Part shown: positions 1,982 to 63,300 of the stretch, piece after piece
Numbering within the stretch: position 1 is the first letter of the stretch
Layout: the number at the start of each line of letters is the position of its first letter
Assembly (NCBI GenBank): GCA_052139835.1
Contig: JBKQVT010000104.1
Location: 323 to 64,322, forward strand
Direction of reading: 5' to 3'
From: Thermoguttaceae bacterium
Lineage (GTDB): Bacteria > Planctomycetota > Planctomycetia > Pirellulales > Thermoguttaceae
Length of the DNA stretch: 64,000 nucleotides
Notes under the pieces: generated by a model
What the model saw: only the letters and a program-made list of their open reading frames with translations
Told to the model about the DNA's origin: nothing
Databases searched by the model: none
Program-made: the position numbers and the translations under genes

Positions 1982-3073
1982 CTACTTGTTTCCGACCCGG
2001 CCCGCCGGCGGCGGGACGTCCAGCTCGGGCAACAGGTCGTGGCCCAGCGATTCCCCCTGCTTGGCCGCATCCTCCCAGAGCAGGCGGGCCCGCGCGCGGT
2101 CCCCTTCCTTGTCCATCGCCAAGAACGTCCCCAAGACGACTTTCGAGCCGGGGGTGTGCGAAAACGAGCGGTTGACCAGCGTGCGGATCACGGCGACCGG
2201 CAGGGCCTCGATGCGGTAGCGCTGCTGCCGGCCGAAGATGTGGATCAGCAACTCGTTGCGGCTGGCCTCGACGATCGCCACGCGGTTGCCCTTGATCTCC
2301 AGCTCGTCGCCGGGGGTCAACTTGGCCACCTCATCGCGCAGCGCGTTCCAGAACTGGTCCAAATGATCGGCGATCGTTTCCAGTCGTTCCGATTCGGCGT
2401 CGTCGGCGGGACTTTGCGCGTTCTTCCGCGCCATTTTCAGGTGCTTATGGGCGGCGGCCATGTCGCGTTGCCAGAAGGCCAGCCGCGTCTGCGCGACCGC
2501 CTTGGCGTAGGCCGCCCGCTTGGCAGCATCTTCCGGCGGCGCCGCGGGCTTCGGCTCTTGCTTCTGCTTGGCGTCGGCGGGGGCAACGTTGGCCGCCGCC
2601 TCCGCCGCCTGCGCGGGGCGGGTCGGGGCAGCGGGGAGAACTTTGTCCACCGGGTGGGTTTCCGCGGGCTTGGGCCCGTGGGCGTCGGGGGGCACGCCGT
2701 CCACGCCCGCCGGCTGCGCGGGGCGGATCGGGGCAGCGGGAGGAACTTTTTCCGCCGCGTTCGCTTCCGCGGGCTGGGTTCCCACCGGGCGCAGCCGGTG
2801 GGCTTGGGACGGTGCGGCGTCCACGCCCGCGGGTTTCGGCCGCTGGGCCTTGGGCGCTGGCGATTGAACCGCTTCCTTTGCGACTTCGGCCTCGGCCGAC
2901 GGTCGTTGCGGACGAGGGTTGAGCACGGCCGCCACCACTCCCGCGAGGGATACGCCAATAAACACCAATAGGGCGGTGATCAGCCAGCCTCGCCAGCCAG
3001 TGTCGGCCTCGGCCGGACCAGAGGGCCGTGTTCGCATTGGATCCATGGTGTTGGCCACGACGATCCTCATCAT
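1982..3073 (-). CDS. hypothetical single-pass membrane protein with Pro/Ala-rich repeat linker
   Basis: ORF 1982..3130. Start placed at the MM pair (3073) because the first codons of the long ORF translate a REP hairpin (3105-3129). TM helix WLITALLVFIGVSLAGVVAAVL, two imperfect 35-40 aa repeats (PAGVD...AAP.RPAQ), ordered C-terminal ~190 aa. Confidence 0.55.
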   Translation of the reverse strand: MMRIVVANTMDPMRTRPSGPAEADTGWRGWLITALLVFIGVSLAGVVAAVLNPRPQRPSAEAEVAKEAVQSPAPKAQRPKPAGVDAAPSQAHRLRPVGTQPAEANAAEKVPPAAPIRPAQPAGVDGVPPDAHGPKPAETHPVDKVLPAAPTRPAQAAEAAANVAPADAKQKQEPKPAAPPEDAAKRAAYAKAVAQTRLAFWQRDMAAAHKHLKMARKNAQSPADDAESERLETIADHLDQFWNALRDEVAKLTPGDELEIKGNRVAIVEASRNELLIHIFGRQQRYRIEALPVAVIRTLVNRSFSHTPGSKVVLGTFLAMDKEGDRARARLLWEDAAKQGESLGHDLLPELDVPPPAGRVGNK

Positions 3074-3104
3074 CCTGGTTTTGGACGCATCTATTTTACA
3101 CCGC

Positions 3105-3130
3105 TGCCACGGCTGTGTCAGCCGTGGCAC
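3105..3130. repeat. REP-like palindrome TGCCACGGCT-GTGTC-AGCCGTGGCA
   Basis: 10-bp stem and 5-nt loop read directly. 22 nt are identical to the reverse complement of 9565-9587. Confidence 0.8.
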
Positions 3131-3249
3131 AAGGGGTAAGATTACGTTATCTCCCGGTTGCGGGAACTAACGCCCGTTGCTGGGCGTCTCTAACTGCGTT
3201 TGGGGCGGGGGAAGACGGTAGCGATGCCAATTTTCGAGGAGATTGCACG

Positions 3250-6200: not shown

Positions 6201-9200
6201 CCCGACCGACGCGGAGGGCCAGGCCCAGCAGCAACTGACGGCCTCGCAGGCCGGGCAATATCGCCTCTCCTACAAGCTGACCGACGGCAAGAACCACACC
6301 ATCGAGGGCGGCTACCTGTTCACCGTCATCGGCGAGGGTTTTGACAGCTCGCAGTTCCGCTTCAACCACCTGGAACTGGTTCCCGAGAAGGCCGACTATG
6401 CGCCGGGCGAGAAGGTGAAGCTGCAGATCAACACCGATCGGGCCGGCAGCACGGTGCTGTTGTTCGCCCGGCCGGCCAACGGCGTCTATCTGCCGCCGCG
6501 GGTCATCCGCATGGACGGCAAGAGCGCGGTGGCGGAGGTCGAGGTGACGAAGAAGGACATGCCCAACTTCTTCGTCGAGGCGGTGGCCGTGGCCGACGGC
6601 CGCGTCTACACCGAGGTCCGGCAGATCACCGTCCCGCCCGAGAAACGGGTGCTGGACATCGAGGTGATCCCTTCGGCGGCGACCTACCGGCCGGGCCAGA
6701 AGGCCAAGGTGAAGATCAAGCTGACCGATGCCCAGGGCAAGCCCTTTGTGGGCTCGACGGTGGTGGCGATCTATGACAAGTCGGTCGAGTACATCTCCGG
6801 CGGGTCGAATGTGCCGGAGATCAAAGAATTCTTCTGGAAGTGGCAGCGGCACCACTCCCCCAACACGGAGTCCAACCTCGGCCGGACGTTCAATAACCTC
6901 ATTTCTCCGAACACGATCGGCATGGGCGACCTGGGCATCTTCGGCCGCAGCGTGGCGGAGGAGTATTCGAAGGATAAAGCGATGGAGCAAGAGGACGGAG
7001 AGGGCATCCTGGACCTCAACGGTGCCGGCGGCGTAGGGTACGGCGCCCGCCGCGCCGCGGGCGCGGCGTTTTCAGCGGACGGTATGGCCCTTGATAGGCT
7101 TGAAAAGAAGGCGGAGGCGAAGCCCATGCCGACGGCGCCGCAGGCGATGGGCCGCGTGATGAATCGCGCCGCGGCTGGCGGCCAGCCCGGCCACGGTGCT
7201 GGCGGCCCGCTGGTCCAGCCGACGCTGCGGACCAAGTTCGCCGACACCGCCCTCTGGGTCGGCAACCTCACCACCGAGAGCAACGGCACCGCCGAAGTGG
7301 CCCTCGACATGCCCGAGAACCTCACCACCTGGCGGATCAAGGTCTGGGGCATGGGCCACGGCACCAAGGTGGGCCAGGGCCAGACCGACGTCATTACCCG
7401 CAAGGACCTGATCGTCCGCCTGGAGGCCCCGCGGTTCTTCGTCCAGACCGACGAAGTGGTCCTGTCGGCTATCGTGCATAACTTCCTCAAGACGAAGAAA
7501 TCGGTCCAGGTGGCGATGGAACTGGGCGGCAAGACGCTCCAGCCGCTGGACGAGTTGACACGGACGGTCGAGATCGCCCCGCAGGGCGAGGTCCGCGTCG
7601 ATTGGCGCGTCAAAGTGCTCGACGAGGGCGAGGCCGTCATCCGCATGAAGGCGCTGACGGACGAAGAATCCGACGCCATGGAGCAGCGGTTCCCCTGCTA
7701 TATCCACGGCATGTTGAAGATGGATGCCTGGTCCGGCGTGATCCGGCCCAAGGACACCACGGGCCAGTTCGGTGTGAGCGTGCCCGAGGCCCGGCGGCCG
7801 CAGCAATCGCGGATCGAGGTCCGCTATTCGCCCACGCTGGCCGGGGCCATGGTCGACGCCCTACCCTACCTGGTCGATTATCCCTACGGCTGCACGGAGC
7901 AGACGCTCAACCGTTTCCTGCCCACGGTCATCACGCAGAAGGTCCTCTTGGAGATGCACCTGAATCTGGAGCAGATCCGCAAGAAGCGGACCAACCTCAA
8001 CGCCCAGGAAATCGGCGAGGACACCGAGCGTGCCAAGCAGTGGAAGCGTTACGGGCGCAATCCGGTTTTCGACGAGGACGAAGTCCGCAAGATGGTCAAG
8101 GACGGGGTCGAGCGGCTGACCGAGATGCAGCTTTCCGACGGCGGCTGGGGGTGGTTCTCCGGTTGGGGCGAGCAGTCCTGGCCGCACACCACGGCCCTGG
8201 TGGTCCACGGCCTGCAACAGGCCCGGCAGAACGACGTGGCCATCGTGCCCGGCACGCTCGATCGCGGCATCGCGTGGCTGCGGCGCTACCAGGACGAGCA
8301 GATCCAGTGGATCAAGAACTGGTCGCTGCGGGAGAAGCAGCCGGGATTGCCCGCCAAGCCGCACGCCGACGAGCTGGACGCCTTCGTCTACATGGTGCTG
8401 GTCGACGCGGGCGTGAAAAACGCCGAGATGCGCGATTTCCTTTATCGCGACCGCACCGAGATCGCCGTCTACGCCAAGGCCATGTTCGGCATCGCGCTGG
8501 AGAAGCAGGGCGAGAAGGAGAAGCTCGCCATGATCCTCCGCAACATCAGCCAATATGTCCAGCAGGATGACGAGGACCAGACGGCCTGGCTCAACCTGCC
8601 CGGCGGCTACTGGTGGTATTGGTACGGCAGCGAGTACGAGGCCGAGGCCTATTACTTGAAGCTGTTGGCGCGGACCGATCCCAAGGGCGAGCTGGCCCCG
8701 CGGCTGGTCAAGTACCTGCTGAACAACCGCAAGAACGCCACTTACTGGACCTCGACCCGCGACACGGCGATCGTGGTGGAGGCGATGGCCGACTTCGTCC
8801 GCGCCAGCGGCGAGCAGCGTCCCGAGATGACCGTCCAGGTCTTCTGGGACGGCAAGCTGCAACAGGCGGTCGAGATCACCCCCCAGACGCTCTTCCAGTT
8901 CGACAACAAGTTCGTGCTGGAGGGCGAGGCGGTCGCGACGGGCAAACACGAGGTGAAGCTCGTCAAACAGGGGACCGGACCGCTCTACTACAACGGCTAC
9001 CTGACGAACTTCACCCTGGAGGACTTCATCACCAAGGCCGGCCTGGAGATCAAGGTCGGGCGGAAGTACTACAAGCTCATCGAGGCCGACAAGTCGATCC
9101 ACGCGGCCGGCTCGCGCGGCCAGGTGGTCGACCAGAAGGTCCAGAAGTATCGGCGCGAGGAACTGGAAAACCTCGCCACGCTCAAGAGCGGCGACCTGGT

Positions 9201-9543
9201 CGAGGTCGAACTGGAGATCCAGAGCAAAAACGACTACGAGTACCTGGTCTTCGAGGACATGAAGCCGGCCGGCTTCGAGCCGGTGGACTTGCGGAGCGGC
9301 TACACGGGCAACGACCTGGGGGCGTACGTGGAATTCCGCGACAACCGCGTGGTCTTCTTCGCCCGTACCCTGGCCCGCGGCAAGCACAGCGTGTGCTACC
9401 GCATGCGGGCGGAGGTCCCCGGCCGCTTCAGCGCCTTGCCCACGCGGGCCTGGGCGATGTATGCCCCCGAGCTGAAGGCCAATTCCGACGAGATCAAGTT
9501 GAAGGTGAAGGACGAAACGGCACGGGCCCCGGAGGGGCGGTAG
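3250..9543 (+). CDS. alpha-2-macroglobulin family protein with thioester (2097 aa)
   Basis: ATG at 3250 in frame with ORF 3028..9543. Signal peptide MKTTVGMIFLALGGLLLGGTVLAADP. Thioester motif YPYGCTEQTLNRF (TGC ACG GAG CAG at 7891-7902). Repeated MG-like beta-sandwich stretches (RPVYRPGQTVEYKFW, TYRPGQKAKVKIKL). C-terminal A2M receptor-like region. Confidence 0.9.
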   Translation: MKTTVGMIFLALGGLLLGGTVLAADPIPDGQASQAPRDGLYKTMDQGNFKDAYDGLRKIILAPGQPVGEDLSRAVTCLERLNRTNEIDELLEAAVKAQQDAPRKWLFLWDIAQQYMQVPKQGVIVAGKFSRGPHRGGDGRWVNAAARDRVRALQLMTQAMPNARNDDEHRKVSGFLRALADMLLNNRGFQESWRLQYKTDLGVLPDYEEGWGWGRGWGFRGGQVQGAPVDTDGKPVFYSVPKDWDQAQNDGQRWRWCLQQAVEFDAQRTNEVRMKFADFLQQQFGVQTMAEFGWRFGRMASDDSKEDTSGTYALNTLGEDETIARLATGVKRFKLPDEFNYIRIYQQVADDPKTGCGADALDHLAREFENRRQYPKAADYLRRALKEYPNDERARTDIAGTWKYRLEQIEGNWGRFEPVMTQPAGQGATVEYRFRNGDQVDFTAQEIKVEKLLDDVKAYIKAHPNQLDWRKINLGDIGFRLVTENQKEYLGQQVAQWKLPLKPRPAHFDQRITVATPLQKAGAYLLTAKMNRGNASCIVIWLNDTAIVRKPMQGKNYYYIADAAAGTPVAKAEVEFFGWQQQWRQPNHIDIETKQFAEYADADGQVLTDPQRQPTYPWQWLVIARTKEGRFGYLGFNGVWYGSWYDADYNATKVFPITDRPVYRPGQTVEYKFWVEHAQYDQADTSAFAGQSFTIEIHNPKGEKVVSVEQKADAYGGLEGHYKLPADATLGEYGMMVKQGNNYLGGGSFRVEEYKKPEFEVNVEAPKEPVMLGEKITATIEAKYYFGSPVTHAKVKYKIMRSSQTEPWYPCWRWDWLYGPGYWWFAYDCPWYPGWSHWCGCCRPIPFWWPHAQQPPELVAEREMEIGSDGKVKVEIDTEVAKAIHPDQDHRYTITAEVVDASRRTIVGEGTVLVARKPFKVYAWVNRGYYRVGDTIHASFNAHTLDNKPVEGKGMLTLLRITYRKDKSGNLEPVETPWAPTWVLPTDAEGQAQQQLTASQAGQYRLSYKLTDGKNHTIEGGYLFTVIGEGFDSSQFRFNHLELVPEKADYAPGEKVKLQINTDRAGSTVLLFARPANGVYLPPRVIRMDGKSAVAEVEVTKKDMPNFFVEAVAVADGRVYTEVRQITVPPEKRVLDIEVIPSAATYRPGQKAKVKIKLTDAQGKPFVGSTVVAIYDKSVEYISGGSNVPEIKEFFWKWQRHHSPNTESNLGRTFNNLISPNTIGMGDLGIFGRSVAEEYSKDKAMEQEDGEGILDLNGAGGVGYGARRAAGAAFSADGMALDRLEKKAEAKPMPTAPQAMGRVMNRAAAGGQPGHGAGGPLVQPTLRTKFADTALWVGNLTTESNGTAEVALDMPENLTTWRIKVWGMGHGTKVGQGQTDVITRKDLIVRLEAPRFFVQTDEVVLSAIVHNFLKTKKSVQVAMELGGKTLQPLDELTRTVEIAPQGEVRVDWRVKVLDEGEAVIRMKALTDEESDAMEQRFPCYIHGMLKMDAWSGVIRPKDTTGQFGVSVPEARRPQQSRIEVRYSPTLAGAMVDALPYLVDYPYGCTEQTLNRFLPTVITQKVLLEMHLNLEQIRKKRTNLNAQEIGEDTERAKQWKRYGRNPVFDEDEVRKMVKDGVERLTEMQLSDGGWGWFSGWGEQSWPHTTALVVHGLQQARQNDVAIVPGTLDRGIAWLRRYQDEQIQWIKNWSLREKQPGLPAKPHADELDAFVYMVLVDAGVKNAEMRDFLYRDRTEIAVYAKAMFGIALEKQGEKEKLAMILRNISQYVQQDDEDQTAWLNLPGGYWWYWYGSEYEAEAYYLKLLARTDPKGELAPRLVKYLLNNRKNATYWTSTRDTAIVVEAMADFVRASGEQRPEMTVQVFWDGKLQQAVEITPQTLFQFDNKFVLEGEAVATGKHEVKLVKQGTGPLYYNGYLTNFTLEDFITKAGLEIKVGRKYYKLIEADKSIHAAGSRGQVVDQKVQKYRREELENLATLKSGDLVEVELEIQSKNDYEYLVFEDMKPAGFEPVDLRSGYTGNDLGAYVEFRDNRVVFFARTLARGKHSVCYRMRAEVPGRFSALPTRAWAMYAPELKANSDEIKLKVKDETARAPEGR

Positions 9544-9549
9544 CCGGCA

Positions 9550-9587
9550 GCCACGGCGCAACCGCACGGCTGACACAGCCGTGGCAC
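9550..9587. repeat. REP-like palindrome (inverted copy of 3105-3130), probable terminator of the A2M gene
   Basis: CACGGCT-GACAC-AGCCGTG hairpin 20 nt after the A2M stop. An extra upstream GCCACGGC half-site allows an alternative pairing. Confidence 0.7.
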
Positions 9588-9608
9588 GCTGCAATTCCCC
9601 ACAGGCGC

Positions 9609-10667
9609 CTAAAAGCTGCCGGCGCTGATCGTCAAGCCGTCGTTGCGCGAACTCAGCCGCCGGAAGACCTCGGGATCGACCGAGTAGCTGATGCGATGCA
9701 CCGAGCCGTCGCAAAAGACGAATTGCGCGCCTGCCGCGTGGGCGGAACCGAACTGGTAGGCGTATTGCCGCTCCTGGCCACCCGGCGCCATTGGGGCGCT
9801 CCCAGCACCGGAAAAGTCGCGCTGCGGCGGGAACTGCCAATAACTTGGGAGGGCCGCCACGCTGGTGGTTGCGCCACCCAGGGCGCCAAAGCGGATCACG
9901 TCGTCCTGGAAACCACCGACGTAACCGGAGTCGTCGTCCGGCTCGCCGGCCCCTTGGGGGGCGACGAAGTAGTAGAGGGCGTTCATCCGCTTCTCTCCCA
10001 CCATGAGCGTGTTGGAAGTCCCGTCGGTCACGCTGGCCGGGGTAACGATGTAACTGCTGCCGCCGTTAAGGGTGCCTTGCATGACCACGATGCCGTCCAC
10101 GGTGCCGTCGCCGTAACAGCCGCCGCCGTCGCCGCCGGAGCAAGTGGTCCCCGCGTTGCCGGCGTAGTCGATCATGGCACGCCATGGCCCCCAGTTGCTG
10201 GTCGTTTCGCTCCGCACAACGGGTTGCCGCCGGGTCGGGCAAAAGTAGATGGCTGTCGGCGTGGCCCTCACCGTCGGGTCGTCCTGGGTCAGCCAGAGCG
10301 GCTTCTCCTCGATGTACGGCAGGATTTGATAGCCCCAGGACCAGTCCTGCTTGTCGAACTGTGCCGGGGTAATGTGGGCGGAATTGGGGGAAGAGGGGGT
10401 GCAGTTGGCCCAGGCCCGGCCATCCCCCCATGCCGACCAATCATAGCGTGCGCCTCCGTTGGGGAACGCCCCCGTCGCCGTGACGTGGCCCAAGAAACCC
10501 ACGCCGATCTGTTTGAGATTATTGCCGCACTGGGCAAGCCGCGCCGTTTCTCGCGCCGACTGCACCGCCGGCAAAAGCAGCCCCACCAGGATGCCGATGA
10601 TCGTGATGACCACCAGGAGTTCGACGAGCGTGAAGGCCCCACGGGGGCGGGCCGGGGAATGGCTCAT
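9609..10667 (-). CDS. DUF1559 domain protein with prepilin-type N-terminal cleavage/methylation motif
   Basis: [55 protein letters not shown] is the classic type IV pilin-like leader plus DUF1559 opening. C-terminal [14 protein letters not shown] motif. ATG at 10667 preferred over the ORF start at 10766. Confidence 0.85.
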
Positions 10668-10778: not shown

Positions 10779-11240
10779 TCAAAAACTGGGGGTATGCCCT
10801 GGAGGAAAACTGGCCTGGCGAAACTCCTGGTCCTGCATCAACTCGACATTCCGCCGCGTCGTCACGACATAGCGCCGGCCATCGACCCCCTGTTTCTCGT
10901 AGGCCAGCACGGGCGTCGACTTGGCCCAATCGACCGGCCTCATCAGGTCCACGCCCCAGCAGATCACAAACGGCTGCCCGTCGCGCGGCGATCGCAACAG
11001 CTCGTCGGGGTTTCCCAATTTGGCCAGCGCCGGCTTCAAGTCCTCCGCACTCTCGGGGGGTTTCTGCTCCGTCGCGCAGAACTGTCCATAGGCCGCGAGG
11101 ATCTTCTTCAGATTGTCCGCGGCGGGGATGCGCGGGGTTTCCACCTTGACGGGCGCCGAGGAGGAGCAGCCCATCGCGATCAGACACCACAGCGCCCAAG
11201 GCAATCGGCGCCGCCATCCTCGCGGGAAGTGCAGTGGCAT
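10779..11240 (-). CDS. small putative lipoprotein, unknown function
   Basis: MPLHFPRGWRRRLPWALWCLIAMGCSSS contains a lipobox (IAMG|C). Lies 13 nt upstream of the long DUF1559 ORF on the same strand. Confidence 0.6.
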   Translation of the reverse strand: MPLHFPRGWRRRLPWALWCLIAMGCSSSAPVKVETPRIPAADNLKKILAAYGQFCATEQKPPESAEDLKPALAKLGNPDELLRSPRDGQPFVICWGVDLMRPVDWAKSTPVLAYEKQGVDGRRYVVTTRRNVELMQDQEFRQASFPPGHTPSF

Positions 11241-11506
11241 GGGGAAGCTCTTCTCGTGCACGCGGTTTGCGGGCGTCGCCACGCCGCCGGGGCTGGCCGC
11301 AATTCCCGGCCCGCTACCCGAAGTATACCGCGCCGGGGGGTAATCTGTAAACCGTCGAATCGGGGTTTGCGGCGGGCAAGGGGGGGCGAAGCGGGGGGGC
11401 GGGGCGGGCCTTGATTTCCCGGCTCCGCCGGGCGATACTTAAGCGTTTGGCGATTTTTGGGTGGGGCGACTCCTGCCCCCGCTGTCACCGTGGAGAATGG
11501 TTTGCC

Positions 11507-15815: not shown

Positions 15816-16712
15816 CTACAGCAGTCCGTAGGCAGCCAGCGTCTTGCGGAGCTTCGCCTCTTCCGTCGCGGTGAGCCGGGTCAGGGGCATCCGCAGATCG
15901 CCCGTGTCGTGGCCGAGCATCTGCATCGCCGCCTTGATTGGGATCGGATTGCTCGCCAGGCCGAGCATATCGCGGCAGAGAGGGAAGAGGCGATAGTGCC
16001 AGCGGCGGGCCTCGGCCAGATCGCCTTGCTCGAAGGCGCGGATCATGGCGATCACGTCGCCGGGGACGATATTGCCCACCACCGAGATCACCCCCCGCCC
16101 TCCCAACGCCAACAGCGGCAAGGTCAGGCTGTCGTCGCCGCTCAGCACGGTCAAATCGGTGGCGGCCAGGATCTGCGATGCCTGGTCCATCGAGCCGGTG
16201 GCCTCTTTGACCATGGTGATGTTGGGCAGCTCGGCCATGCGGGCGATCGTCTCCGGCTCGATGTTCTTGCCGGTGCGGCCGGGAATGTTGTAGACGCAGA
16301 TGGGGATCTCCACCGCCTGGGCCAGGACCTTGAAGTGCTGGTAGAAGCCTTCCTGGGTGGGCTTGTTGTAATAAGGGGCGACGACCAAGGCGGCGTCTGC
16401 CCCGCTCTTGGCCGCCCAGCGGGTCAGCCGCAGGGCCTCCTCCGTGCTGTTGGAGCCGGTGCCGGCCATGACCTTGATCCGCCCGGCGGCCGCCTCGACC
16501 ACCGCGGAAATCACCCGCTCGTGCTCGGGATGCGAAAGCGTGGGACATTCGCCGGTCGTTCCCACCGGGCAGACGCAGGTCGTGCCCGCCGCGATTTGGA
16601 ATTCCACGTTCCGCTCGAGGGCCTCCAGATCGACCTGGCCGTCGCGGAAGGGCGTTATGAGGGCCACGCCAAGGCCGGCAAAGTCTTCACTGCGGGTGGG
16701 CATGGGGTTCAC
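15816..16712 (-). CDS. dapA: 4-hydroxy-tetrahydrodipicolinate synthase
   Basis: [41 protein letters not shown] and full-length DapA collinearity. Start is GTG 16712 or ATG 16703. Confidence 0.9.
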
Positions 16713-16720
16713 GTATGAAA

Positions 16721-16814
16721 GGAGTTAGGAGTTAGGAGTTAGAAGTTAGAAGCTGGGATTCAGGGGCAGTGGAGCATCGAAGCTTCTAACTCCTAGCTTC
16801 TAGCTCCTACCTCC
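16721..16814 (-). repeat. octamer-array hairpin, (GGAGTTAG)n arms, between pdxJ and dapA
   Basis: Arms 16721-16754 and 16781-16814 are 34 nt each and complementary at 29/34 positions, with a 26-nt loop. Fills the entire pdxJ-dapA spacer. Confidence 0.85.
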
Positions 16815-16815
16815 T

Positions 16816-17526
16816 TCAGGTGATCAGGCACTTCATCTCGCGAACGGCCGTTTCCAGGCCAACCATCACCGCCCGCGCGATGATGCTGTGGCCGATGTTC
16901 AATTCGTGCATGGCCTCGATCGAGGCCACGGGGCGGACGTTCCGATAGGTCAGGCCGTGGCCCGCGTGCAAGGCCAGCCCCGCGGCGGACACTTGCCGGC
17001 CGGAGCGCTTGAGCACTTCGAGCTGCTTGGCGGCGGCCGCGCCGCGGCCTAGGGCATATTGGCCCGTGTGCAACTCGACGGCCTCGACGCCCAGCGCAAT
17101 CGCCGCTTCGATCTGCCGCGGATCGGGATCGAGAAACAGGCTGACCGCGATGCCGGCCTCGCGGAGCCGGGCGACGACCGGCGCGACGCGCTCGCGGTGG
17201 GCGGCCACGTCCAGTCCGCCCTCCGTGGTCAGTTCCTCGCGGCGTTCCGGGACCAGTGTCGCCTGGTCCGGCTTGACCTGGCAGGCGATTTCCAGGACCT
17301 GCCGGTCGCAGGCCATTTCCAGGTTCAGCTTGACGGCGACCGTTTCGCGGAGGACCCGCAGGTCGCGCTCTTGGATGTGGCGGCGATCCTCGCGGAGGTG
17401 CAAGGTGATACAGTCGGCCCCGCCCAGCTCCGCCAAAACGGCCGCCCAGACGGGGTCAGGTTCGTTGGCGCGCCGGGCCTGCCGCAAGGTGGCGACGTGA
17501 TCGATGTTGACGCCGAGTTCCGCCAT
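16816..17526 (-). CDS. pdxJ: pyridoxine 5'-phosphate synthase
   Basis: [25 protein letters not shown]...[16 protein letters not shown]...ELHTGQYA...[12 protein letters not shown] at 17526. The upstream 121 codons of ORF 16816..17889 are Arg/Pro/Ser junk. Confidence 0.9.
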
Positions 17527-19014: not shown

Positions 19015-19081
19015 GTGCCACTGGCTCCGCCAGTGCCTTTTTGCCAGTGGCCCAGGCGAGCACTGGCAAAGCCAGTGGCAC
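19015..19081. repeat. nested palindromic element (GTGCCACTGGC ... GCCAGTGGCAC)
   Basis: Outer 11-bp arms 19015-19025 / 19071-19081 and inner arms TTTGCCAGTG / CACTGGCAAA. A 13-nt mini-copy GTGCCACTGGCAC occurs at 34868-34880. Confidence 0.75.
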
Positions 19082-27392: not shown

Positions 27393-28850
27393 ATGCGAAT
27401 TCTGCATTTTTCTCTGCTGGTAGTGTGCTTGGGACTGCTGGGCGGCAGTGTGGCCTGGGCGGCCGCTGACGATGCGACTTCGCCCAAGGCGGCGGAAAAG
27501 CCGGCCGCCGCCACGCCGGCGGGCCAGGACGCGGGAGTCTCGACGGCCAGCGACGCCGCCGTTCCGACGCCGCTGCCCCCGGTGGCCAAGGAAGACAAAC
27601 CGGCCGCCGCCACGCCGGCGGGCCAGGACGCGGGAGTCTCGACGGCCAGCGACGCCGCCGGCGCGCCGCCGCCGCCCCCTCCGGCCAAGGAAAACACGCC
27701 GCCCGCGAAGGCCGCCCCCCCGGAACCGCCGAAAACAGAACCGCCGAAAACAGAACCACCGAAGGTAGCATCGCCGAAGGCAGAGGCGCCGAAGGCGGCG
27801 CCGAAAAAGCAACTTACCGCCGCGCAAGTCGAACTCCGCGACCGCGTCCGCCGCACCTTGGAGGCGCAACTCCAACAGCCCTTCAACACCCGCGACAATA
27901 CGGCCGCCGACCTCATCAAGTTTTGCTGGGCCTTCGGCTGCCGAAGCGAAGTCGAGCGCGGCGATGCGCCGGGACAGAAGGTCAACGCCGTCACCTGCCT
28001 GTGCTGGGACCTTCCCTGCGGCGGATACCACCTGCTGGCGCTGGACGACGGCCGGATTGCCGCCCGCGTCGGCTACGGCCTGCAAGACGATCCCGCCCAG
28101 TTCCTGGCGATGTTGGCGTTGGCCCACGTTCCCACCGACTATCCGCTCCGCGCCGGGAAAACGGTCCGCACCGTGGCCGACCTGGTGGAGTCGGAGAAGC
28201 GCGCCTGCCGCTCCGGGGCCGACATGTCGCTGAAATTGGTCGGCCTGTCGCATTATGCCGGGCAGGAAACGTGGAAGAACAGCCTGGACGAGGACTGGTC
28301 GATCAAGCGGATGGTCGCCTCCGAGTTGGCCCGGCCGCCGGTTGCCGGACCGGGCGGGATCACGAGGCTGCTGGGGCTCAGTTGCGCGCTGAATTTGTGC
28401 GCGAGGTCGGAGACGCCGCTGGACGGGGCCTTCGGCCGCGCCAAAGCCTTCGTCGACGACTACCGGCAATACGTGCTGCGAAGTCAGAACAGCGACGGGA
28501 GCTGGAGTTTCCGGCCCGTCGCCGGCCAGGCCCCCGAGCGCGACTACGCCTGGCAGTTCCTGGCCACCGGCGAGGTCGCCGAGTGGCTGGCCTTGAGCGT
28601 GCCGGCAACGGCCCTGGAAGACCCGACGCTGGTCCGGTCGATCGAGTATCTCGACTCCATGCTCAACAGCGAGCGCTATCGCGGCAGCACGCAGGGGCTG
28701 AGCAGCCGGGACCTCGCCGCCATGGCCCACGCGATGCACGCGCTGGCGGTCTACGACGCGCGGGTCTTTCAGCCCGCCGACCCCGAGCCGGGCAAAGAAG
28801 CCAAGCCGGTCGCCACCGCCGCCAGTGGGCAGGCCGCCGCCGTGCAATAG
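27393..28850 (+). CDS. secreted protein with prenyltransferase/squalene-oxidase-type (alpha/alpha toroid) repeat region
   Basis: MRILHFSLLVVCLGLLGGSVAWA signal peptide. Pro/Ala-rich duplicated linker. QNSDGSWSF and related terpenoid-cyclase-like repeat motifs in the C-terminal ~300 aa. Confidence 0.65.
   Translation: MRILHFSLLVVCLGLLGGSVAWAAADDATSPKAAEKPAAATPAGQDAGVSTASDAAVPTPLPPVAKEDKPAAATPAGQDAGVSTASDAAGAPPPPPPAKENTPPAKAAPPEPPKTEPPKTEPPKVASPKAEAPKAAPKKQLTAAQVELRDRVRRTLEAQLQQPFNTRDNTAADLIKFCWAFGCRSEVERGDAPGQKVNAVTCLCWDLPCGGYHLLALDDGRIAARVGYGLQDDPAQFLAMLALAHVPTDYPLRAGKTVRTVADLVESEKRACRSGADMSLKLVGLSHYAGQETWKNSLDEDWSIKRMVASELARPPVAGPGGITRLLGLSCALNLCARSETPLDGAFGRAKAFVDDYRQYVLRSQNSDGSWSFRPVAGQAPERDYAWQFLATGEVAEWLALSVPATALEDPTLVRSIEYLDSMLNSERYRGSTQGLSSRDLAAMAHAMHALAVYDARVFQPADPEPGKEAKPVATAASGQAAAVQ
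27501..27660 (+). repeat. 61-bp perfect direct repeat at 99-bp spacing inside CDS 27393..28850
   Basis: 27501-27561 equals 27600-27660 exactly (encodes PAAATPAGQDAGVSTASDAA twice). An adjacent 15-bp x3 repeat lies at 27723-27767 (EPPKT). Confidence 0.9.
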
Positions 28851-29140: not shown

Positions 29141-29935
29141 CTATTCTGTCGCCTGTTGCAGCACGCCGGAGTAGAGAAGCTCCTCGCCCGCGGCCGTCTC
29201 CAGCCGCAAGGCCCCGTCGGGGGCGATGCCGCGGCAGACGCCGGTGAGCAGCCGCCGGCCGCGCTGCACGCGGAGCGTACGGCCATGTTGCACACAAAGG
29301 GCGTCGGCGCGGGCGGCAATCCGCGGGCCGTCGCAAGCCAGGCCGGCGAAGTTCCGCTCCAAATGACCCATCAGGCCGATAAGGATCTGCGTCTGGTCCT
29401 GTGGCCGGCCGGTCAGGTCGCGGAGCGTGGCCGCTTGCTCGCGCAGCTCCGGCGGGGCGTCGGCGAGCGAGTTGTTGGTGTTGATGCCGATGCCCACGAC
29501 GTGCCGCCCGTCGGCGAGCGCTTCGATGAGAATGCCCGAGAGCTTCCGCGGGCCGACCAGCACGTCGTTGGGCCACGCCAGGCCCACCTGGTGGTCCGGC
29601 AGCAGCGGAGCGACGCTCTCGGCGACGGCGACGGCGGCGGCCAGGGCGGCCAGCGGGGCACGGCTTCGCAGCGGCGCGGAAAGCTGCCGTGGCCCCAGCA
29701 GCAGGCTCATGGCCAGGCCGCCCCCGCCCGTCCACCAGCGGTTGGCCCCCCTGCCCCGTCCGGCCGTTTGCTCGTCGGCGAGAATCAGCAAGGGCAGCTC
29801 GTGGTCGCCTTCGGCCGCGGCCTGGATCGCCCGATCATTGGTCGAGCGCAGCGTCGCATGGTGCTCGATCCGCACGACGAACGTCTCGTGCAGGACGCGC
29901 TCGGTGTCGATGGAATTTGGGGTGGATGGGGGCAT
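29141..29935 (-). CDS. birA: biotin--[acetyl-CoA-carboxylase] ligase
   Basis: ADEQTAGRGRGANRWWT (GRGRxGR biotin-loop motif), LAWPNDVLVGPRKLSGILIE. 264 aa with no N-terminal HTH visible, so a group I ligase. Confidence 0.85.
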   Translation of the reverse strand: MPPSTPNSIDTERVLHETFVVRIEHHATLRSTNDRAIQAAAEGDHELPLLILADEQTAGRGRGANRWWTGGGGLAMSLLLGPRQLSAPLRSRAPLAALAAAVAVAESVAPLLPDHQVGLAWPNDVLVGPRKLSGILIEALADGRHVVGIGINTNNSLADAPPELREQAATLRDLTGRPQDQTQILIGLMGHLERNFAGLACDGPRIAARADALCVQHGRTLRVQRGRRLLTGVCRGIAPDGALRLETAAGEELLYSGVLQQATE

Positions 29936-29942
29936 GAGGAAA

Positions 29943-30043
29943 AGGAGTTAGAAGTTAGGAGTTAGGAGTTAGAATCGCGGGGGGGTCGAGACAGATCTGC
30001 TTTCCGGGGGCTCTTAACTTGAAACTCCTAACTTCTAACTCCT
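29943..30043 (-). repeat. octamer-array hairpin, (GGAGTTAG)n arms, upstream of birA
   Basis: 29943-29963 is perfectly complementary (21/21) to 30023-30043. Further degenerate CTAACT units extend to ~30067. Confidence 0.85.
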
Positions 30044-30161
30044 AAATTCTAACTGTTAACTTCTTCCAGCGAAACCGACCTTGACTGGGCGGCCTATCCT
30101 TGTTATCTAACGGCCCTTGCCAAGGACTTATCTGTGGTTTTCTCATCGGGAACCCGCCTCC

Positions 30162-32582: not shown

Positions 32583-32711
32583 GTTTCTGTTGCGGAAGGC
32601 TGGGTGCCACTGCTGGCTTGTCCAGCAGTGCCGATGCGTTGCCCCACCACACTGCTGGGCAAGCCAGCAGTGGCACCCGAAAACCCGTTTGCCGCCTTCC
32701 GCAACAGAAAC
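32583..32711. repeat. 129-bp three-tier near-perfect palindrome
   Basis: Arms 32583-32600/32694-32711 (18/18), 32602-32620/32661-32679 (19/19) and 32622-32630/32650-32658 (9/9). Each half can also fold on itself (CACTGCTGG-N5-CCAGCAGTG). Confidence 0.9.
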
Positions 32712-45869: not shown

Positions 45870-46120
45870 AGCCGAGTGCAGCCGAATTCCGCGCCGCAAA
45901 AGGGCGCGGGAGCGGGGGAACCAGTTGGCCGAGAGAAATCGGCCAGGGGCGCAGGTCCGTACCGTCCGGACCAGGGTACTTTCATGCCCTAGCCCGACAG
46001 CTAACCTCGCAGGCAGGTCGCGGCGCGGTGCCGCGGCCGGTATGAAAGGGCCTCCACGTCTGGCGGCGCGGCGTTGTGCCCAACCTCCCCTTGCGGCGCT
46101 TCCATCGCGCCGGTCGATCT

Positions 46121-48967: not shown

Positions 48968-49050
48968 GGATTTGGGGATTTCGGGATTTGGGGATTTAGG
49001 GGACAGCGAGCCGGGGGGTTTATCCCCCCGGGTTCGTTGCGCCGCCGCGG
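48959..49050 (+). repeat. composite element: (GGGATTTN)x5.5 array plus 26-nt hairpin core plus GC tail
   Basis: gggattta gggatttg gggatttc gggatttg gggattta gggg, then GCGAGCCGGGGGGTTTATCCCCCCGG (49006-49031) and ttcgttgcgccgccgc. The transporter TAG stop (48965-48967) lies in unit 1. Confidence 0.9.
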
Positions 49051-50867: not shown

Positions 50868-52301
50868 TCACGGCGAAATGTGGAACGACGGCTTGTGCTC
50901 CCGACGTGCGACCCCGGCCTCGACCGCCGCGTGCGATACCGCCTTCGCCACCGCAATCGCCACGCGACGGTCGAAGACGCTGGGGACGATGTAGTCGGGC
51001 GTGAGGTCCCCCTGGGCAATCACGCCCGCAATCGCACCGGCGGCGGCGATCTTCATGGCGTCGACCACCCGGCAGGCCCGCACGTCCAACATGCCGCGAA
51101 AGAAGCCGGGAAAACAGAGCACGTTGTTGATCTGGTTCGGATAATCCGAGCGCCCGGTCGCCACCACCGCCGCGTACGGCACGGCCAGGTCCGGATCGAT
51201 CTCGGGATCGGGGTTCGCCAGGGCGAAGACGATGGGCCGCGGGGCCATTTTCTTCAGGTCCTCGACGCCCAAGACGTCCGCCGCCGAGACGCCGATGAAG
51301 ACATCGGCGCCGGCGATCACGTCAGCCAGGCTGCCCCGCAGCCGCTCGGGATTGGTGTTCTCGGCCAGCCACTGTTTCACCGGGTTATCGGCGTAATCGT
51401 TGCCGCGCACGAGCGCCCCGGCGCGGTCGCAGAGCACGATGCGCGCGGCGCCCGCCGAGGCCAGCAGCTTGGCGATGGCCGTGCCGGCCGCTCCCGCCCC
51501 CGAGATGACCACACGCAGGTCCGGCAGCTTCTTCTCGACCAGTTTCAGGGCGTTTTCGAGGGCGGCCATCACGACGATGGCCGTGCCGTGCTGGTCGTCG
51601 TGAAAGACCGGGATATCAAGCCGGCCGCTCAGCTCCTCCTCGATGGCCATGCAGCGCGGGGCGGAGATGTCCTCCAGGTTGATGCCGCCGAAGGTCGGCG
51701 CCAGGCGGACGCAGGTCTCGACGATCTCGCCGGCGTCCTGGGTGCCGAGGCAGATGGGAAAGGCGTCCACGCCGCCGAATTCCTTGAACAGCACGGCCTT
51801 GCCCTCCATCACCGGCAGGGCGGCCAGGGGGCCGATGTTGCCCAGGCCCAGGACCGCCGAGCCGTCGCTCACCACGGCGACGGTGTTGTGGCGGATGGTC
51901 AGGGCGAAGGCGGCCTCCGGCTCGGCGTGGATCGAGCGGCAAATCCGCGCCACCCCCGGCGTATAGACCATCGAGAGGTCGTCGCGGGTGACCACGGGCG
52001 TGATCGGGTTGATTTCGATCTTGCCGCCGAGGTGGAGGAGAAACGTGCGGTCGGATACCCGCAGCACCCGCACCCCTTCGATGGCCCGGACGCACTGCAC
52101 GATCCGCTGCTCGTGCTCCAGGTCGCGGGCGCTGACGGTGATGTCGCGGGTGATGTTGCCCTCTTGGACTTCGACCACGTCGACGGCGCCGATGAAGCCG
52201 TCGGCCGCGCCGATGGCCGAGGTGATGCGGCCCAACTGGCCGGGGCGGTCGGCGTATCGCAGCCGCAGAACGGTGCTGTAGGAGGGGCTTTGGCGTTTCA
52301 T
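50868..52301 (-). CDS. NAD(P)-dependent malic enzyme with N-terminal ACT domain
   Basis: ACT-like VLRLRYADRPGQLGRITSAIGAADGFIGAVDV. Malic enzyme core VYTPGVARIC...VVSDGSAVLGLGNIGPLAALPVMEGKAVLFKEFGGVDAFPI. Rossmann VISGAGAAGTAIAKLL. ATG 52301 preferred over TTG 52313. Confidence 0.9.
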   Translation of the reverse strand: MKRQSPSYSTVLRLRYADRPGQLGRITSAIGAADGFIGAVDVVEVQEGNITRDITVSARDLEHEQRIVQCVRAIEGVRVLRVSDRTFLLHLGGKIEINPITPVVTRDDLSMVYTPGVARICRSIHAEPEAAFALTIRHNTVAVVSDGSAVLGLGNIGPLAALPVMEGKAVLFKEFGGVDAFPICLGTQDAGEIVETCVRLAPTFGGINLEDISAPRCMAIEEELSGRLDIPVFHDDQHGTAIVVMAALENALKLVEKKLPDLRVVISGAGAAGTAIAKLLASAGAARIVLCDRAGALVRGNDYADNPVKQWLAENTNPERLRGSLADVIAGADVFIGVSAADVLGVEDLKKMAPRPIVFALANPDPEIDPDLAVPYAAVVATGRSDYPNQINNVLCFPGFFRGMLDVRACRVVDAMKIAAAGAIAGVIAQGDLTPDYIVPSVFDRRVAIAVAKAVSHAAVEAGVARREHKPSFHISP

Positions 52302-52313
52302 GGGAGGAACCAA

Positions 52314-52394
52314 GGAGTTAGAAGTTAGGAGTTAGAAGCGTTGAGCGGACGGCCGTCGATGCTTCCGACTTCTAACTCCTAACTCCTAACTCCT
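52314..52394 (-). repeat. octamer-array hairpin, (GGAGTTAG)n arms, between sdhB and the malic enzyme gene
   Basis: 52314-52338 and 52370-52394 are complementary at 24/25 positions. The loop carries its own GACGG/CCGTC mini-palindrome. Confidence 0.9.
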
Positions 52395-52408
52395 TTCTTC
52401 TTTCTCCT

Positions 52409-53245
52409 TCATCCATCCAGCCAGCGGCGCAGGACGTGCCGCGTGGCGGCGCGGCCCTGGCGGGCAATCGCCGTCGTCAGGGGGATCTCCTTCGGGCAGA
52501 CCTGCGCGCAGTTCTGCGCATAGCTGCACGTCTCGATCCCCCCTTCGCCCACCAGCACGTCCAACCGCTGCGGGGCCAGCATCTTTCCGATCGGGTTCAA
52601 ATTGAACAACTCCGCCTGGCCGATGGCGAAGGCGCCGACGTAGCCGCGGGCCTCGGCCGCGCGGCGGCGGGCGTCGTACTGCTCCGGGGTCTCGTCGCGG
52701 CGATAGGCCGCCTCGATCTTGAGGAACTGCGGACAAGCCTCCAGGCAGCAGCCGCAGACGATGCACTTGCTCAGCACATAGGCCGTCTCCTGGTCCGGCA
52801 TCGACTGCCGCGGGCCCGAGCCCATGTCCAGGTAGCTATCCACCGGCACCCAGGCCTGGATCCGCTCCAGGGCGGCGAACATCCGGTCGCGGTCGACCAC
52901 CAGGTCGCGGAGCACGGGAAACTTGGTCATCGGCCGCAGCTCGATCTGGCCCGGCCGCTCGGCCAGCAGGGCGTCGACCAGGGCCGTACACGCCTGGCGG
53001 ACGCGGCCGTTGACCAGCATCGTGCAGGCCCCGCAGACCTCTTCCAGGCAATTGCACTCCCAGGCGATGGGGGCGACCTTGCGGCCGTCGGCGGTCACGC
53101 CCGCGGTGGCGATCTTCTCCAGGACGCTGATGCAGTTCATGTACGGTTCCCAGGGGACCTCGAACTGCTGCCAATAGGGCTGCTTCGCCGGCGCGTCCTG
53201 CCGCAGCACGCGGACCGAAAACGTCTTGGAAGGGGATTGGCTCAT
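52409..53245 (-). CDS. sdhB: succinate dehydrogenase/fumarate reductase iron-sulfur subunit
   Basis: MSQSPSKTF... with WECNCLEEVCGAC ([2Fe-2S]), CIVCGCCLEACP and CAQVCP cluster motifs. ATG 53245 overlaps the sdhA stop (ATGA). Confidence 0.9.
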   Translation of the reverse strand: MSQSPSKTFSVRVLRQDAPAKQPYWQQFEVPWEPYMNCISVLEKIATAGVTADGRKVAPIAWECNCLEEVCGACTMLVNGRVRQACTALVDALLAERPGQIELRPMTKFPVLRDLVVDRDRMFAALERIQAWVPVDSYLDMGSGPRQSMPDQETAYVLSKCIVCGCCLEACPQFLKIEAAYRRDETPEQYDARRRAAEARGYVGAFAIGQAELFNLNPIGKMLAPQRLDVLVGEGGIETCSYAQNCAQVCPKEIPLTTAIARQGRAATRHVLRRWLDG

Positions 53246-59234: not shown

Positions 59235-59307
59235 GGGATTTAGGGATTTCGGGATTTAGGGATGGCGAGCCGGGGGGTTTATCCCCCCGGTTTCGCTGCG
59301 CCGCCGC
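59235..59307 (+). repeat. composite element, second copy: (GGGATTTN)x3.5 plus 26-nt hairpin core plus GC tail
   Basis: gggattta gggatttc gggattta ggga, then GCGAGCCGGGGGGTTTATCCCCCCGG (59265-59290) and tttcgctgcgccgccgc. Confidence 0.9.
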
Positions 59308-59420
59308 TAATCACCGCAGCCGTGTTCTCCGTGTTTCCCTGGTGTTTTTCTTTTCCCCCGTAATCATACGCACGGAGGGGATGATTGCCAAGCCGTTCTA
59401 GGAAAAAACCTGCGCTTCGT

Positions 59421-62492: not shown

Positions 62493-62501
62493 AGAAAACC
62501 T

Positions 62502-62529
62502 CCCTAAATCCCTAAATCCCTAAATCCCT
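62502..62529. repeat. (CCCTAAAT)x3 octamer array
   Basis: Read directly between the carbonic anhydrase stop (62534) and the GTG start of 61575..62492. It is the complement of the GGGATTTA arrays. Confidence 0.9.
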
Positions 62530-63250: not shown

Positions 63251-63267
63251 GGGGATCTCCTGGTTTA

Positions 63268-63300
63268 GGGATTTAGGGATTGGGGATTGGGGATTGGGGA
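63268..63300. repeat. (GGGATTTA)/(GGGGATT) array
   Basis: gggattta gggatt ggggatt ggggatt gggga, filling the spacer between the hydrolase stop (63301) and the carbonic anhydrase start (63250). Confidence 0.9.

Follow-up and report, generated by a model that had tools for sequence, protein, structure and literature searches.

The window analysed here (64,000 nt of contig JBKQVT010000104.1 from a Thermoguttaceae bacterium, 66% GC) contains three long palindromes, which we call HP1, HP2, and HP3 (copies 1 to 3). By Pfam assignment of the flanking genes, the order of features is pdxJ, HP1, dapA at the first locus; HP2, birA at the second; and sdhA, sdhB, HP3, malic enzyme at the third (Table 1). 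These palindromes represent a repeat of about 100-125 bp that is non-coding and dispersed, and all three copies in these 64 kb are intergenic. A reading of the window made from its letters alone (the sequence-only reading) had described one hairpin architecture at these loci, with a start codon shortly after the 3' arm. Both statements hold: an inverted-repeat search and folding confirm the palindromes, and the final CTCC of the 3' arm lies 17 nt before the ATG of dapA (at 16703), 8 nt before that of birA (29935), and 12 nt before that of the malic enzyme gene (52301). HP1 and HP3 fill intercistronic spacers, as it also said, with the upstream TGA immediately before each, and HP2 lies outside such spacers, between the divergent birA and DUF6268 genes.

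Read on the minus strand, all three loci begin with runs of GGAGTTA or GAAGTTA, pass through a GC-rich centre into runs of TAACTCC or TAACTTC, and end at the start codon. In every copy, tandem heptamers (TTAGGAG or TTAGAAG) make up a G-rich arm, which is followed by a GC-rich core of 30-56 nt and a complementary arm (CTCCTAA or CTTCTAA). Tandem Repeats Finder reports a period of 7, with 3-5 copies per arm; the octamer that the sequence-only reading took for the unit is this heptamer plus the first G of the following one. The motif GGAGTTAG occurs 53 times in the window with at most one mismatch, as compared with 22.2 +/- 4.6 times in shuffles, and all 13 of its exact occurrences are inside the three loci. 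The arms (32-41 nt) begin with AAGGAG... and are about 40% GC, versus 66% for the window, and the loci rank 2nd, 6th, and 15th among its lowest-GC 80-nt stretches, in agreement with the earlier remark that they are among its most AT-rich regions. Every reading frame of either arm sequence contains a stop codon (TAG for (TTAGGAG)3 and TAA for (CTCCTAA)3). The cores are mostly unique to their own locus and have only short motifs in common (TCGAYG... and CGATTCTAAC). We considered and rejected a common core for copies 1 and 3, which share only TCGATGCTyCC, in opposite orientation. We also did not rely on a low-depth Logan contig of 227 nt with a dapA flank and a core like that of copy 3, which might be a k-mer chimera. 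Because an inverted repeat reads G-arm to C-arm on both strands, the orientation of the arms is uninformative, and the claim that all three copies are oriented alike relative to the downstream gene is empty for them. Only the core can carry orientation, and it faces the same way relative to the downstream gene in all three copies.

An inverted-repeat finder places the loci among the longest palindromes of the window (arms of 41 nt and 83% complementarity, 32 nt and 91%, and 33 nt and 85%). As minus-strand RNA, HP1, HP2, and HP3 are predicted to fold at -49.6, -45.2, and -59.7 kcal/mol (z = -6.7, -4.5, and -7.7). As plus-strand RNA, the values are -62.2, -61.4, and -57.3 kcal/mol, and the antisense folds better than the sense for two of the three copies. 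The predicted stems are 27-40 bp long, and their base takes in the stop-codon region and comes to 1-17 nt from the ATG; for HP3, the A and U of the AUG are predicted to pair with the AU of the stop-codon region, ...GGAUGA. If it forms as modelled, a stem of 27-40 bp that reaches from the upstream stop to 8-17 nt before the ATG must have a physical consequence for the mRNA.

The sdhB-malic enzyme junction exists with and without the palindrome. L249, a locus that is collinear with the window over 21 kb (84-92% nucleotide identity; sdhB is collinear with its gene at 9172-10008), has an empty site, GGATGA/CATGAAACGCC, where the slash marks the junction (with a longer left side, ...GGATGGATGA/CATGAAACGCC and ...CTGGATGGATGA/CATGAAACGCC). 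This site reads TGA-C-ATG, with 1 nt between the sdhB stop and the malic enzyme start. In the window and in L248 (a 99% strain), 106 nt (52303-52408) lie exactly between the TGA and CATG: the filled site is GGATGA/AGGAG...CCTCC/CATG and the empty one GGATGA/CATG, and the BLAST segments between the window and L249 break at 52409 and 52302. L250, a more distant outgroup with a different upstream gene, has stop-C-ATG as well. The element is therefore polymorphic for presence (window and L248) and absence (L249), and the alignment shows that copy 3 is inserted DNA, apparently a ready-made palindrome that split a tightly coupled 1-nt junction, and not an evolved leader. Local repeat growth is ruled out at HP3, because a spacer of 1 nt cannot give rise to 106 nt of palindrome that include a GC-rich core of 30 nt.

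Copy 1 is labile. We ranked pdxJ-dapA loci by the identity of their dapA protein to that of the window, whose TTAGGAG hairpin (-49.6 kcal/mol, z = -6.7) is the reference. In L247 (99% identity), little of the 5' arm is left (-19.6 kcal/mol, z = -1.2). At 95%, L245 has other arm units and an inverted centre (-34.4 kcal/mol, z = -1.2), and L246 is like L245 with one more heptamer (-40.2 kcal/mol, z = -4.3), even though the dapA proteins of these two are identical. L242 (93%) has no hairpin; its 50-nt spacer contains a Shine-Dalgarno sequence, GGAGGAGG, 7 nt before the ATG (-13.6 kcal/mol, z = +0.5). An unrelated GC-rich palindrome is found in L243 (92%), and L244 (88%) has a hairpin of a different heptamer, (GTCAGTT)n...(AACTGAC)n, at -53.5 kcal/mol (z = -5.9). 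The sequence GAACCCCATG is kept at the dapA start in all of these strains. In reverse complement, the window's centre agrees with the central 32 nt of L245 at 25 of 32 positions, and a forward alignment gives no match, while the 3' arm of L245 is still collinear with the window's, with 22 nt identical; judging from the alignment, the centre was presumably inverted through recombination between the arms.

Copy 2 has been kept for longer. L251, which is on the same contig as L249 (the locus without copy 3), has a hairpin upstream of birA at the same distance to the ATG as HP2, with a homologous core in the same orientation and a predicted energy of -52.8 kcal/mol (z = -5.5), at 81% identity of the birA protein. 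The number of arm units differs between L251 and HP2. With the birA hairpin kept at this divergence, on a contig that lacks copy 3, the family must be an old one in this lineage and includes both older and younger copies. As far as alignments can tell, then, comparison of these strains shows that the arms change their unit number, apparently by slippage, that the core can flip, and that whether a copy decays or persists does not depend on the gene beside it.

The arms are far more numerous than any one locus. DNA of the window is matched in soil and peat metagenome runs, and in soil run X1, at 90% likeness or more, read depth was 26-36 over the flanks, 370-513 over the left arm, about 2100 over the right arm, and 64-68 over the core. 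Across soil runs X1-X3, arm depth was 15-80 times flank depth, and the arms were joined to many unlike flanks. A 392-nt contig of similar depth and with unlike flanks matches arms and core with 7 differences in 70 nt (90% in the core); as judged by this match it is a paralogous copy. The element is not an assembly artefact, because it is seen in several independent assemblies (L121, L247, L248, L252, and Logan contigs).

We also scanned species genomes for GGAGTTAGGAGTTAG; the results from these scans and from the metagenomes hold among the matches listed. The hits are mostly in Nostocales, and also in Thermoguttaceae, Phycisphaerales, Kiritimatiellia, Chloroflexota, Bacteroidales, and Clostridia. 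In this unbiased sample, pairs of a G-array and a C-array no more than 150 nt apart have the G-array first in 24 cases and the C-array first in none (p = 1e-7); there are also 7 same-sense pairs. Further heptamer hairpins in those loci have the G-rich arm first, too. Solo arrays have their nearest open reading frame on the 5' side of the G-strand in 58 cases versus 29, and the nearest boundary is most often a stop codon, in 37 versus 17 (solo G-strand arrays come after stop codons in 37 cases versus 12), which is the positional rule of the G-rich heptamers of Xanthomonas and Nostoc (PMC4692102). The hairpin form is present in at least 120 metagenome contigs from termite gut, rumen, human gut, peat, and soil, with GC contents of 0.31-0.69 and with variant units (TCTGGAG, TCAGGAG, TGAGGAG) around a GGAGT/GAAGT core.

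By rough gene calls, the metagenome hairpins lie between co-directional genes in 51 cases, convergent genes in 21, and divergent genes in 9, and inside genes in 3; only 3 of 122 copies are inside called genes. The median distance to the stop codon is 2 nt in low-GC hosts, 16 nt in mid-GC hosts, and 29.5 nt in high-GC hosts, and that to the start codon is 32, 42, and 19 nt, respectively. The sequence-only reading held that the element is always directly 5' of a start codon and proposed tabulating its copies. The claim is right for the three copies in the window, and in high-GC hosts copies do lie near starts (within 20 nt in 9 of 16); elsewhere they are nearer to stops, and convergent contexts also occur, so it does not extend to the family at large. 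The flank 3' of the C-arm is G-poor and modestly T-rich (at least 4 T in the first 8 bases in 42% of flanks, versus 19% further out). Among 45 co-directional hairpins, the sense RNA was the more stable in 21 and the antisense in 24; such equal stability is as expected of a palindrome at the level of DNA, and we rejected strand-specific selection on the RNA. The start-proximal C-arm tends weakly to be the longer arm (35 versus 19, p = 0.055). A termite-gut subfamily (L123, L135, L149, L153, L156, L162, L206, and L233) has a common core with a small GC stem, GGGCGTAGCCC/CGGCGTAGCCG, and relative to the downstream gene its GGCGUAGCC core faces one way in about 7 of 8 cases.

We propose, with a probability of about 0.6, that the element is an insertional palindrome similar to a repetitive extragenic palindrome (REP) or a miniature transposable element with inverted repeats (MITE), with hypervariable heptamer arms and with effects on mRNA that are by-products. 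The flanking genes are of unrelated function, and the element has the look of a genomic passenger, not of a regulator dedicated to dapA, birA, or the malic enzyme gene. Several observations weigh against this proposal. The cores differ among copies with no evident master copy, and at 90% likeness or more core depth was only about twice that of the flanks. The clean HP3 junction, which is one junction, has no duplicated target bases. Apart from a Y1 transposase in L243, the sequences covered yielded no transposase, RAYT, or other mobilising gene, and a tblastn search with that Y1 transposase gave no match in the window or in roughly 1.5 Mb of other fetched loci. The place, orientation, and hairpin of HP2 are kept across 19% amino-acid divergence of birA, which could mean function. 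The core orientation (3 of 3 in the window and about 7 of 8 in termite gut) hints at strand-specific selection or insertion, and neutral insertion alone does not explain the strict polarity or the closeness to stop and start codons. Finally, co-transcription, RNase III cleavage, and coupling are steps that we infer. (A link to RAYT/IS200 was rejected as well: the sole Y1 transposase is in L243, where it accompanies a different, GTAG-type palindrome.)

If the element is such a passenger, its effects on mRNA might be as follows. HP1 and HP3 would be co-transcribed with their neighbours, because 1-17 nt leave no space for a promoter, and would fold into a long hairpin of about 30 bp. The base of the hairpin would bring the upstream stop and the downstream start codon together. 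A ribosome that terminates at the UGA would cover roughly 10 nt downstream, melt the base, and free the start region, and the original TGA-C-ATG coupling of termination and reinitiation could in this way outlast the insertion. The palindrome may be tolerated at such sites because coupling survives, with the stem rejoining stop and start. A near-perfect stem of about 30 bp would also be a plausible substrate of RNase III or protector of RNA ends, and by analogy with Correia/NEMIS, ERIC, and REP elements the likeliest side effect would be on mRNA processing or segmental stability. No sigma-70-type promoter (-35 and -10 boxes 16-18 bp apart) was found at HP1 or HP3, with the caveat that planctomycete promoters may differ; HP2 has a single weak match, on its plus strand (30019-30048). 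We rejected the idea that the inner unit TTAGAAT is a -10 box that fires across the core: it is absent from HP1 and HP3, and the consensus scan is negative. A search for RNA runs that match genes of the window or one termite-gut locus found none.

The sequence-only reading favoured a selected, cis-acting RNA: a hairpin that controls initiation, or processing and segmental stability, of the gene after it. On this explanation, the GGAG arm would be masked by the CUCC arm. The resemblance of these arms to Shine-Dalgarno and anti-Shine-Dalgarno sequences is real at the level of the letters, and all three copies stop 8-17 nt before an ATG without a Shine-Dalgarno sequence. The start-side distances in high-GC hosts, the partly paired start codon predicted for HP3, the hairpin kept in L251, and the shared core orientation in the window and in termite gut all fit this explanation, and the TAACTGA heptamers of Beggiatoaceae are also just upstream of starts (PMC4679880). 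Against it, the alignment of orthologous spacers that the reading itself had proposed found the element absent from L249 and L242, decayed in L247, and inverted at its centre in L245. Furthermore, copies in low- and mid-GC hosts hug stop codons (medians of 2 and 16 nt), 21 listed copies are convergent, the sense RNA is not the more stable one, the neighbours have unrelated functions, and there is no Rfam match. Thus, that a long stem this close to an ATG affects initiation, processing, or stability is reasonable, but the comparisons weigh against gene-specific regulation, and we consider selection for a regulatory RNA to be unlikely.

A similarly doubtful explanation is that the heptamer-armed hairpins form a class that crosses phyla under one conserved mechanism. 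At breaks beside genes, a dedicated activity for insertion or repair might add G-rich heptamers to 3' ends. Or, the hairpin could be a portable coupling module that works without a Shine-Dalgarno sequence in Planctomycetota, Cyanobacteria, and Bacteroidota, which make little use of Shine-Dalgarno sequences. This explanation is kept alive by the polarity, the placement by stop and start codons (with one copy entering a 1-nt spacer and duplicating nothing), the use of one heptamer in distant phyla, the core orientation (which is flipped in L245), and the longer C-arm. If it were true, the oriented core would be the functional part.

We think it quite improbable that the element is a bidirectional transcription terminator or an insulator that acts from either side. 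Such a role would account for hairpins 0-20 nt past the stop codon in most of the low- and mid-GC loci listed, for the excess of convergent over divergent contexts (21 versus 9), and for the solo G-strand arrays after stop codons (37 versus 12). It would also suit the G-poor, T-richer 3' flank (42% versus 19%), and some copies have A-runs before them and T-runs after them. However, a consensus scan found no intrinsic terminator at the three loci of the window, and their tails (CUCCUUUCAUAC, CUCCUUUUCCUC, and CUCCUUGGUUCC) have no U-tract. Termination at HP1 and HP3 would silence dapA and the malic enzyme gene, as 1-17 nt leave no space for a promoter, and HP2 lies between divergent starts.

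Purely local expansion of simple sequence, by slippage and template switching with no movement between sites, has about as poor a chance. It could explain why L245 and L246 differ in unit number at identical dapA proteins, why length and composition are not the same in the two arms of a copy, and why most cores are unique to their locus. Also, heptamers are described as the commonest long simple repeats of bacteria and are credited to slippage (Mrazek 2007, as cited in PMC4679880 and PMC4692102). But it cannot make HP3 from a 1-nt spacer, the paralogous copy has the core as well as the arms, and random growth does not predict a polarity of 24 to 0. It is very unlikely that the arms are primarily an array of protein-binding sites, on DNA or RNA, with GGAGT or AACTCC every 7 nt for a protein such as ribosomal S1, a CsrA-like or cold-shock protein, or a nucleoid protein and with the hairpin secondary: the periodicity is strict, GGAGT/GAAGT is common to TTAGGAG, TCTGGAG, TCAGGAG, and TGAGGAG, and such proteins were proposed for TAACTGA repeats (PMC4679880), but no candidate protein was identified, the motifs are base-paired within the hairpin, and unit number and sequence drift freely between strains.

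Table 1. The three palindromes and the genes beside them (positions in the window).
Feature	Positions	Strand	Details
Copy 1 (HP1)	16719..16816	minus	Palindromic element filling the 112-nt pdxJ-dapA spacer (16704-16815); on the mRNA strand, G-rich 5' arm 16816->16776, core about 16782->16753, C-rich 3' arm 16759->16719
Copy 2 (HP2)	29942..30065	minus	In the spacer between divergent birA (minus) and DUF6268 gene (plus); arms 29942-29974 and 30015-30065; core 43-58 nt; ends 8 nt before birA ATG
Copy 3 (HP3)	52303..52408	minus	106-nt insertion between the sdhB TGA (52409-52411) and C-ATG of malic enzyme; arms 52307-52338 and 52369-52400; core 52339-52368
dapA (4-hydroxy-tetrahydrodipicolinate synthase)	15816..16703	minus	Downstream of HP1; Pfam DHDPS, E = 3.7e-89
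pdxJ	16816..17526	minus	Upstream of HP1; Pfam PdxJ, E = 9.2e-96; TGA 16816-16818 abuts HP1
Biotin-protein ligase, birA type without HTH domain	29141..29935	minus	Downstream of HP2; Pfam BPL_LplA_LipB, BPL_C
DUF6268 gene	30117 (or later)..31355	plus	Bounds the HP2 spacer; Pfam DUF6268, E = 3.4e-7
Malic enzyme with N-terminal ACT domain	50868..52301	minus	Downstream of HP3; Pfam malic, Malic_M, ACT_4
sdhB (succinate dehydrogenase or fumarate reductase Fe-S subunit)	52409..53245	minus	Upstream of HP3; Pfam Fer2_3, Fer4_8

The counterpart of pdxJ in L121 is called as a 236-aa gene. A minus-strand open reading frame that overlaps the DUF6268 gene has no Pfam match. The nearest named homologues of dapA and of the malic enzyme are in metagenome-assembled genomes of Thermoguttaceae, Pirellulales, and Planctomycetaceae. 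Elsewhere in the window, a c-di-AMP riboswitch (ydaO/yuaA type) is found at 45870-46030 on the plus strand (57 bits versus a gathering score of 38), just upstream of a 974-codon open reading frame at 46046-48967; it is unrelated to the hairpins and is the sole Rfam match that reaches its gathering threshold. A 72-nt (24-codon) repeat is present about nine times at 49992-50645, inside an open reading frame at 49158-50729 that would encode a leucine-rich-repeat-like protein, with cross-matches in relatives. Two 99-nt tandem copies (90% alike) at 27501-27696 and 15-nt repeats at 27723-27796 are GC-rich and probably coding.

REP, MITE, and STRR (short tandemly repeated repetitive) elements are widespread yet poorly understood, and heptamer repeats have no accepted function. 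The case offers what is seldom at hand: a natural pair of alleles at one junction, the bare TGA-C-ATG and its counterpart split by 106 nt of palindrome, as well as old and young copies in one lineage and a simple polarity rule across phyla. With these, one can ask how a palindrome enters, why it is tolerated between essential genes, and whether it changes mRNA processing or translational coupling. For annotation, the case is a warning that such hairpins are not each a gene-specific regulator.

Like REPs and their composites (BIMEs and REPINs), the element is a short, non-coding, multicopy extragenic palindrome; these are often co-transcribed in operons and are labile, and REPs have been credited with mRNA stabilisation or termination (PMC3116915, PMC3733652). 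Multiple extragenic copies are found here, too (3 in 64 kb, and the arm depth in soil runs). In contrast, REPs are GC-rich palindromes of 20-40 bp with a GTAG/CGTC end tag and a RAYT gene, whereas the arms in the window are AT-rich heptamers in a 66% GC genome and lack both the tag and the short GC-rich form. A search of Rfam 15 found no family for the hairpins (a permissive search gave only sub-threshold models of miRNA precursors, which are generic long hairpins), and the arm sequence GGAGTTAGGAG had no literature match, so the earlier statement that this is not a classical REP and not a recognised family stands. L243 illustrates the difference: its pdxJ-dapA palindrome starts with GGTAGGGTGGGTCGAGCGAAGC (GTAG-type), and a gene for a 140-aa IS200-like Y1 transposase lies 7 kb away (9700-9990; 2818-3240). 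A third REP-like family in the window comprises GC-rich palindromes GTGCCACTGG...CCAGTGGCAC at 19015-19081 and 32602-32678 (arms of 22-29 nt, 91-97% complementary), which are also found downstream of dapA in L242 (about 11230-11255).

Terminal inverted repeats around a short non-coding interior and insertion polymorphism, as in MITEs, are both present; target-site duplication is not, at the one junction. Correia/NEMIS and ERIC elements are similar in length (about 100-150 bp), in their long terminal inverted repeats, and in their insertion near genes. RNase III or RNase E cleaves the hairpins of these co-transcribed elements, which changes transcript levels. They are repeats of fixed sequence with a TA duplication and a conserved interior, unlike the variable heptamer arms and mostly locus-specific cores described here. 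RNase III substrates have about 20 bp or more of near-continuous double-stranded RNA, and the cut leaves a 2-nt 3' overhang. At the intercistronic RNase III sites of T7 early mRNA, cleaved stems leave protective hairpin ends, and in structure-mediated coupling a terminating ribosome melts a stem base that contains the upstream stop. Those sites are conserved, single-copy, and functionally tested, and with them the element may share a mechanism by analogy only.

The STRR sequences of cyanobacteria are also intergenic tandem heptamers of hypervariable copy number, and the head-to-tail heptamers here likewise vary in number between strains. STRR sequences have been described as direct arrays of other units, namely CCCCAGT, TTGGTCA, and CAACAGT. 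The descriptions that we found of them do not include paired-arm palindromes with a core or high-GC planctomycete hosts, and it is by description that we set them apart; TTAGGAG itself forms arrays and G-arm/C-arm hairpins in many of the Nostocales genomes listed.

The TAACTGA repeats described by MacGregor in 2015 have TAACT in common with the 3' arm unit TAACTCC, and have a patchy spread across phyla: they are direct repeats of 2-6 units in marine Beggiatoaceae, cyanobacteria, and Bacteroidetes (PMC4679880). Only one inverted case in 170 sets is reported, and neither insertion polymorphism nor a core is described (PMC4679880). The unit of the element, TAACTCC/TAACTTC, agrees with TAACTGA at 5 of 7 bases, and in the window it always has an inverted partner arm. 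Hairpins close to TAACTGA do occur in planctomycete relatives, as (TCAGTTT)11...(AAACTGA)3-4 in L023 (1-190) and (GTCAGTT)n...(AACTGAC)n in L244 (9874-9989).

The GGGAATC and GGGGA(C/T)T heptamers of Xanthomonas and Nostoc (Rehm 2015) follow the same positional rule: directly past a stop codon the G-strand is the coding one, and directly ahead of a start codon it is the non-coding one (PMC4692102). Like the hairpins here, they are rare between divergent genes (PMC4692102). They also vary in length among close relatives, and inverted pairs may form stem-loops (PMC4692102). The difference is that they form G-quadruplexes and prefer four units (PMC4692102), and TTAGGAG has no G-tracts. Nearer to this class are arrays of the octamer (GGGATTTA)n at gene boundaries of the window (48958-49001, 59235-59263, 62498-62529, and 63264-63301), with heptamers (GGGATTG)n at 63273-63301, whose G-tracts could form quadruplexes. 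L249 has one octamer unit fewer at the 59.2-kb site and lacks the 48.9-kb array. Two of the octamer arrays adjoin a GC hairpin, GCGAGCC-GGGGGG-TTTAT-CCCCCC-GGTTTCGCTGCGCCGCC (49005-49050 and 59265-59310), which is identical in L249 and has a copy in L245 (about 7195-7235) with a compensating change in the stem, GCCGGG/CCCGGC. This hairpin may represent either a repeat of the REP kind or an RNA that resembles a terminator.

The HP family, then, differs from REPs, classical MITEs, TAACTGA repeats, and terminators in what defines each of them, and shares with these kinds the generic traits of an extragenic palindrome, a heptamer repeat, and insertion polymorphism; it is a dispersed palindrome in which each inverted arm is a heptamer array of variable unit number.

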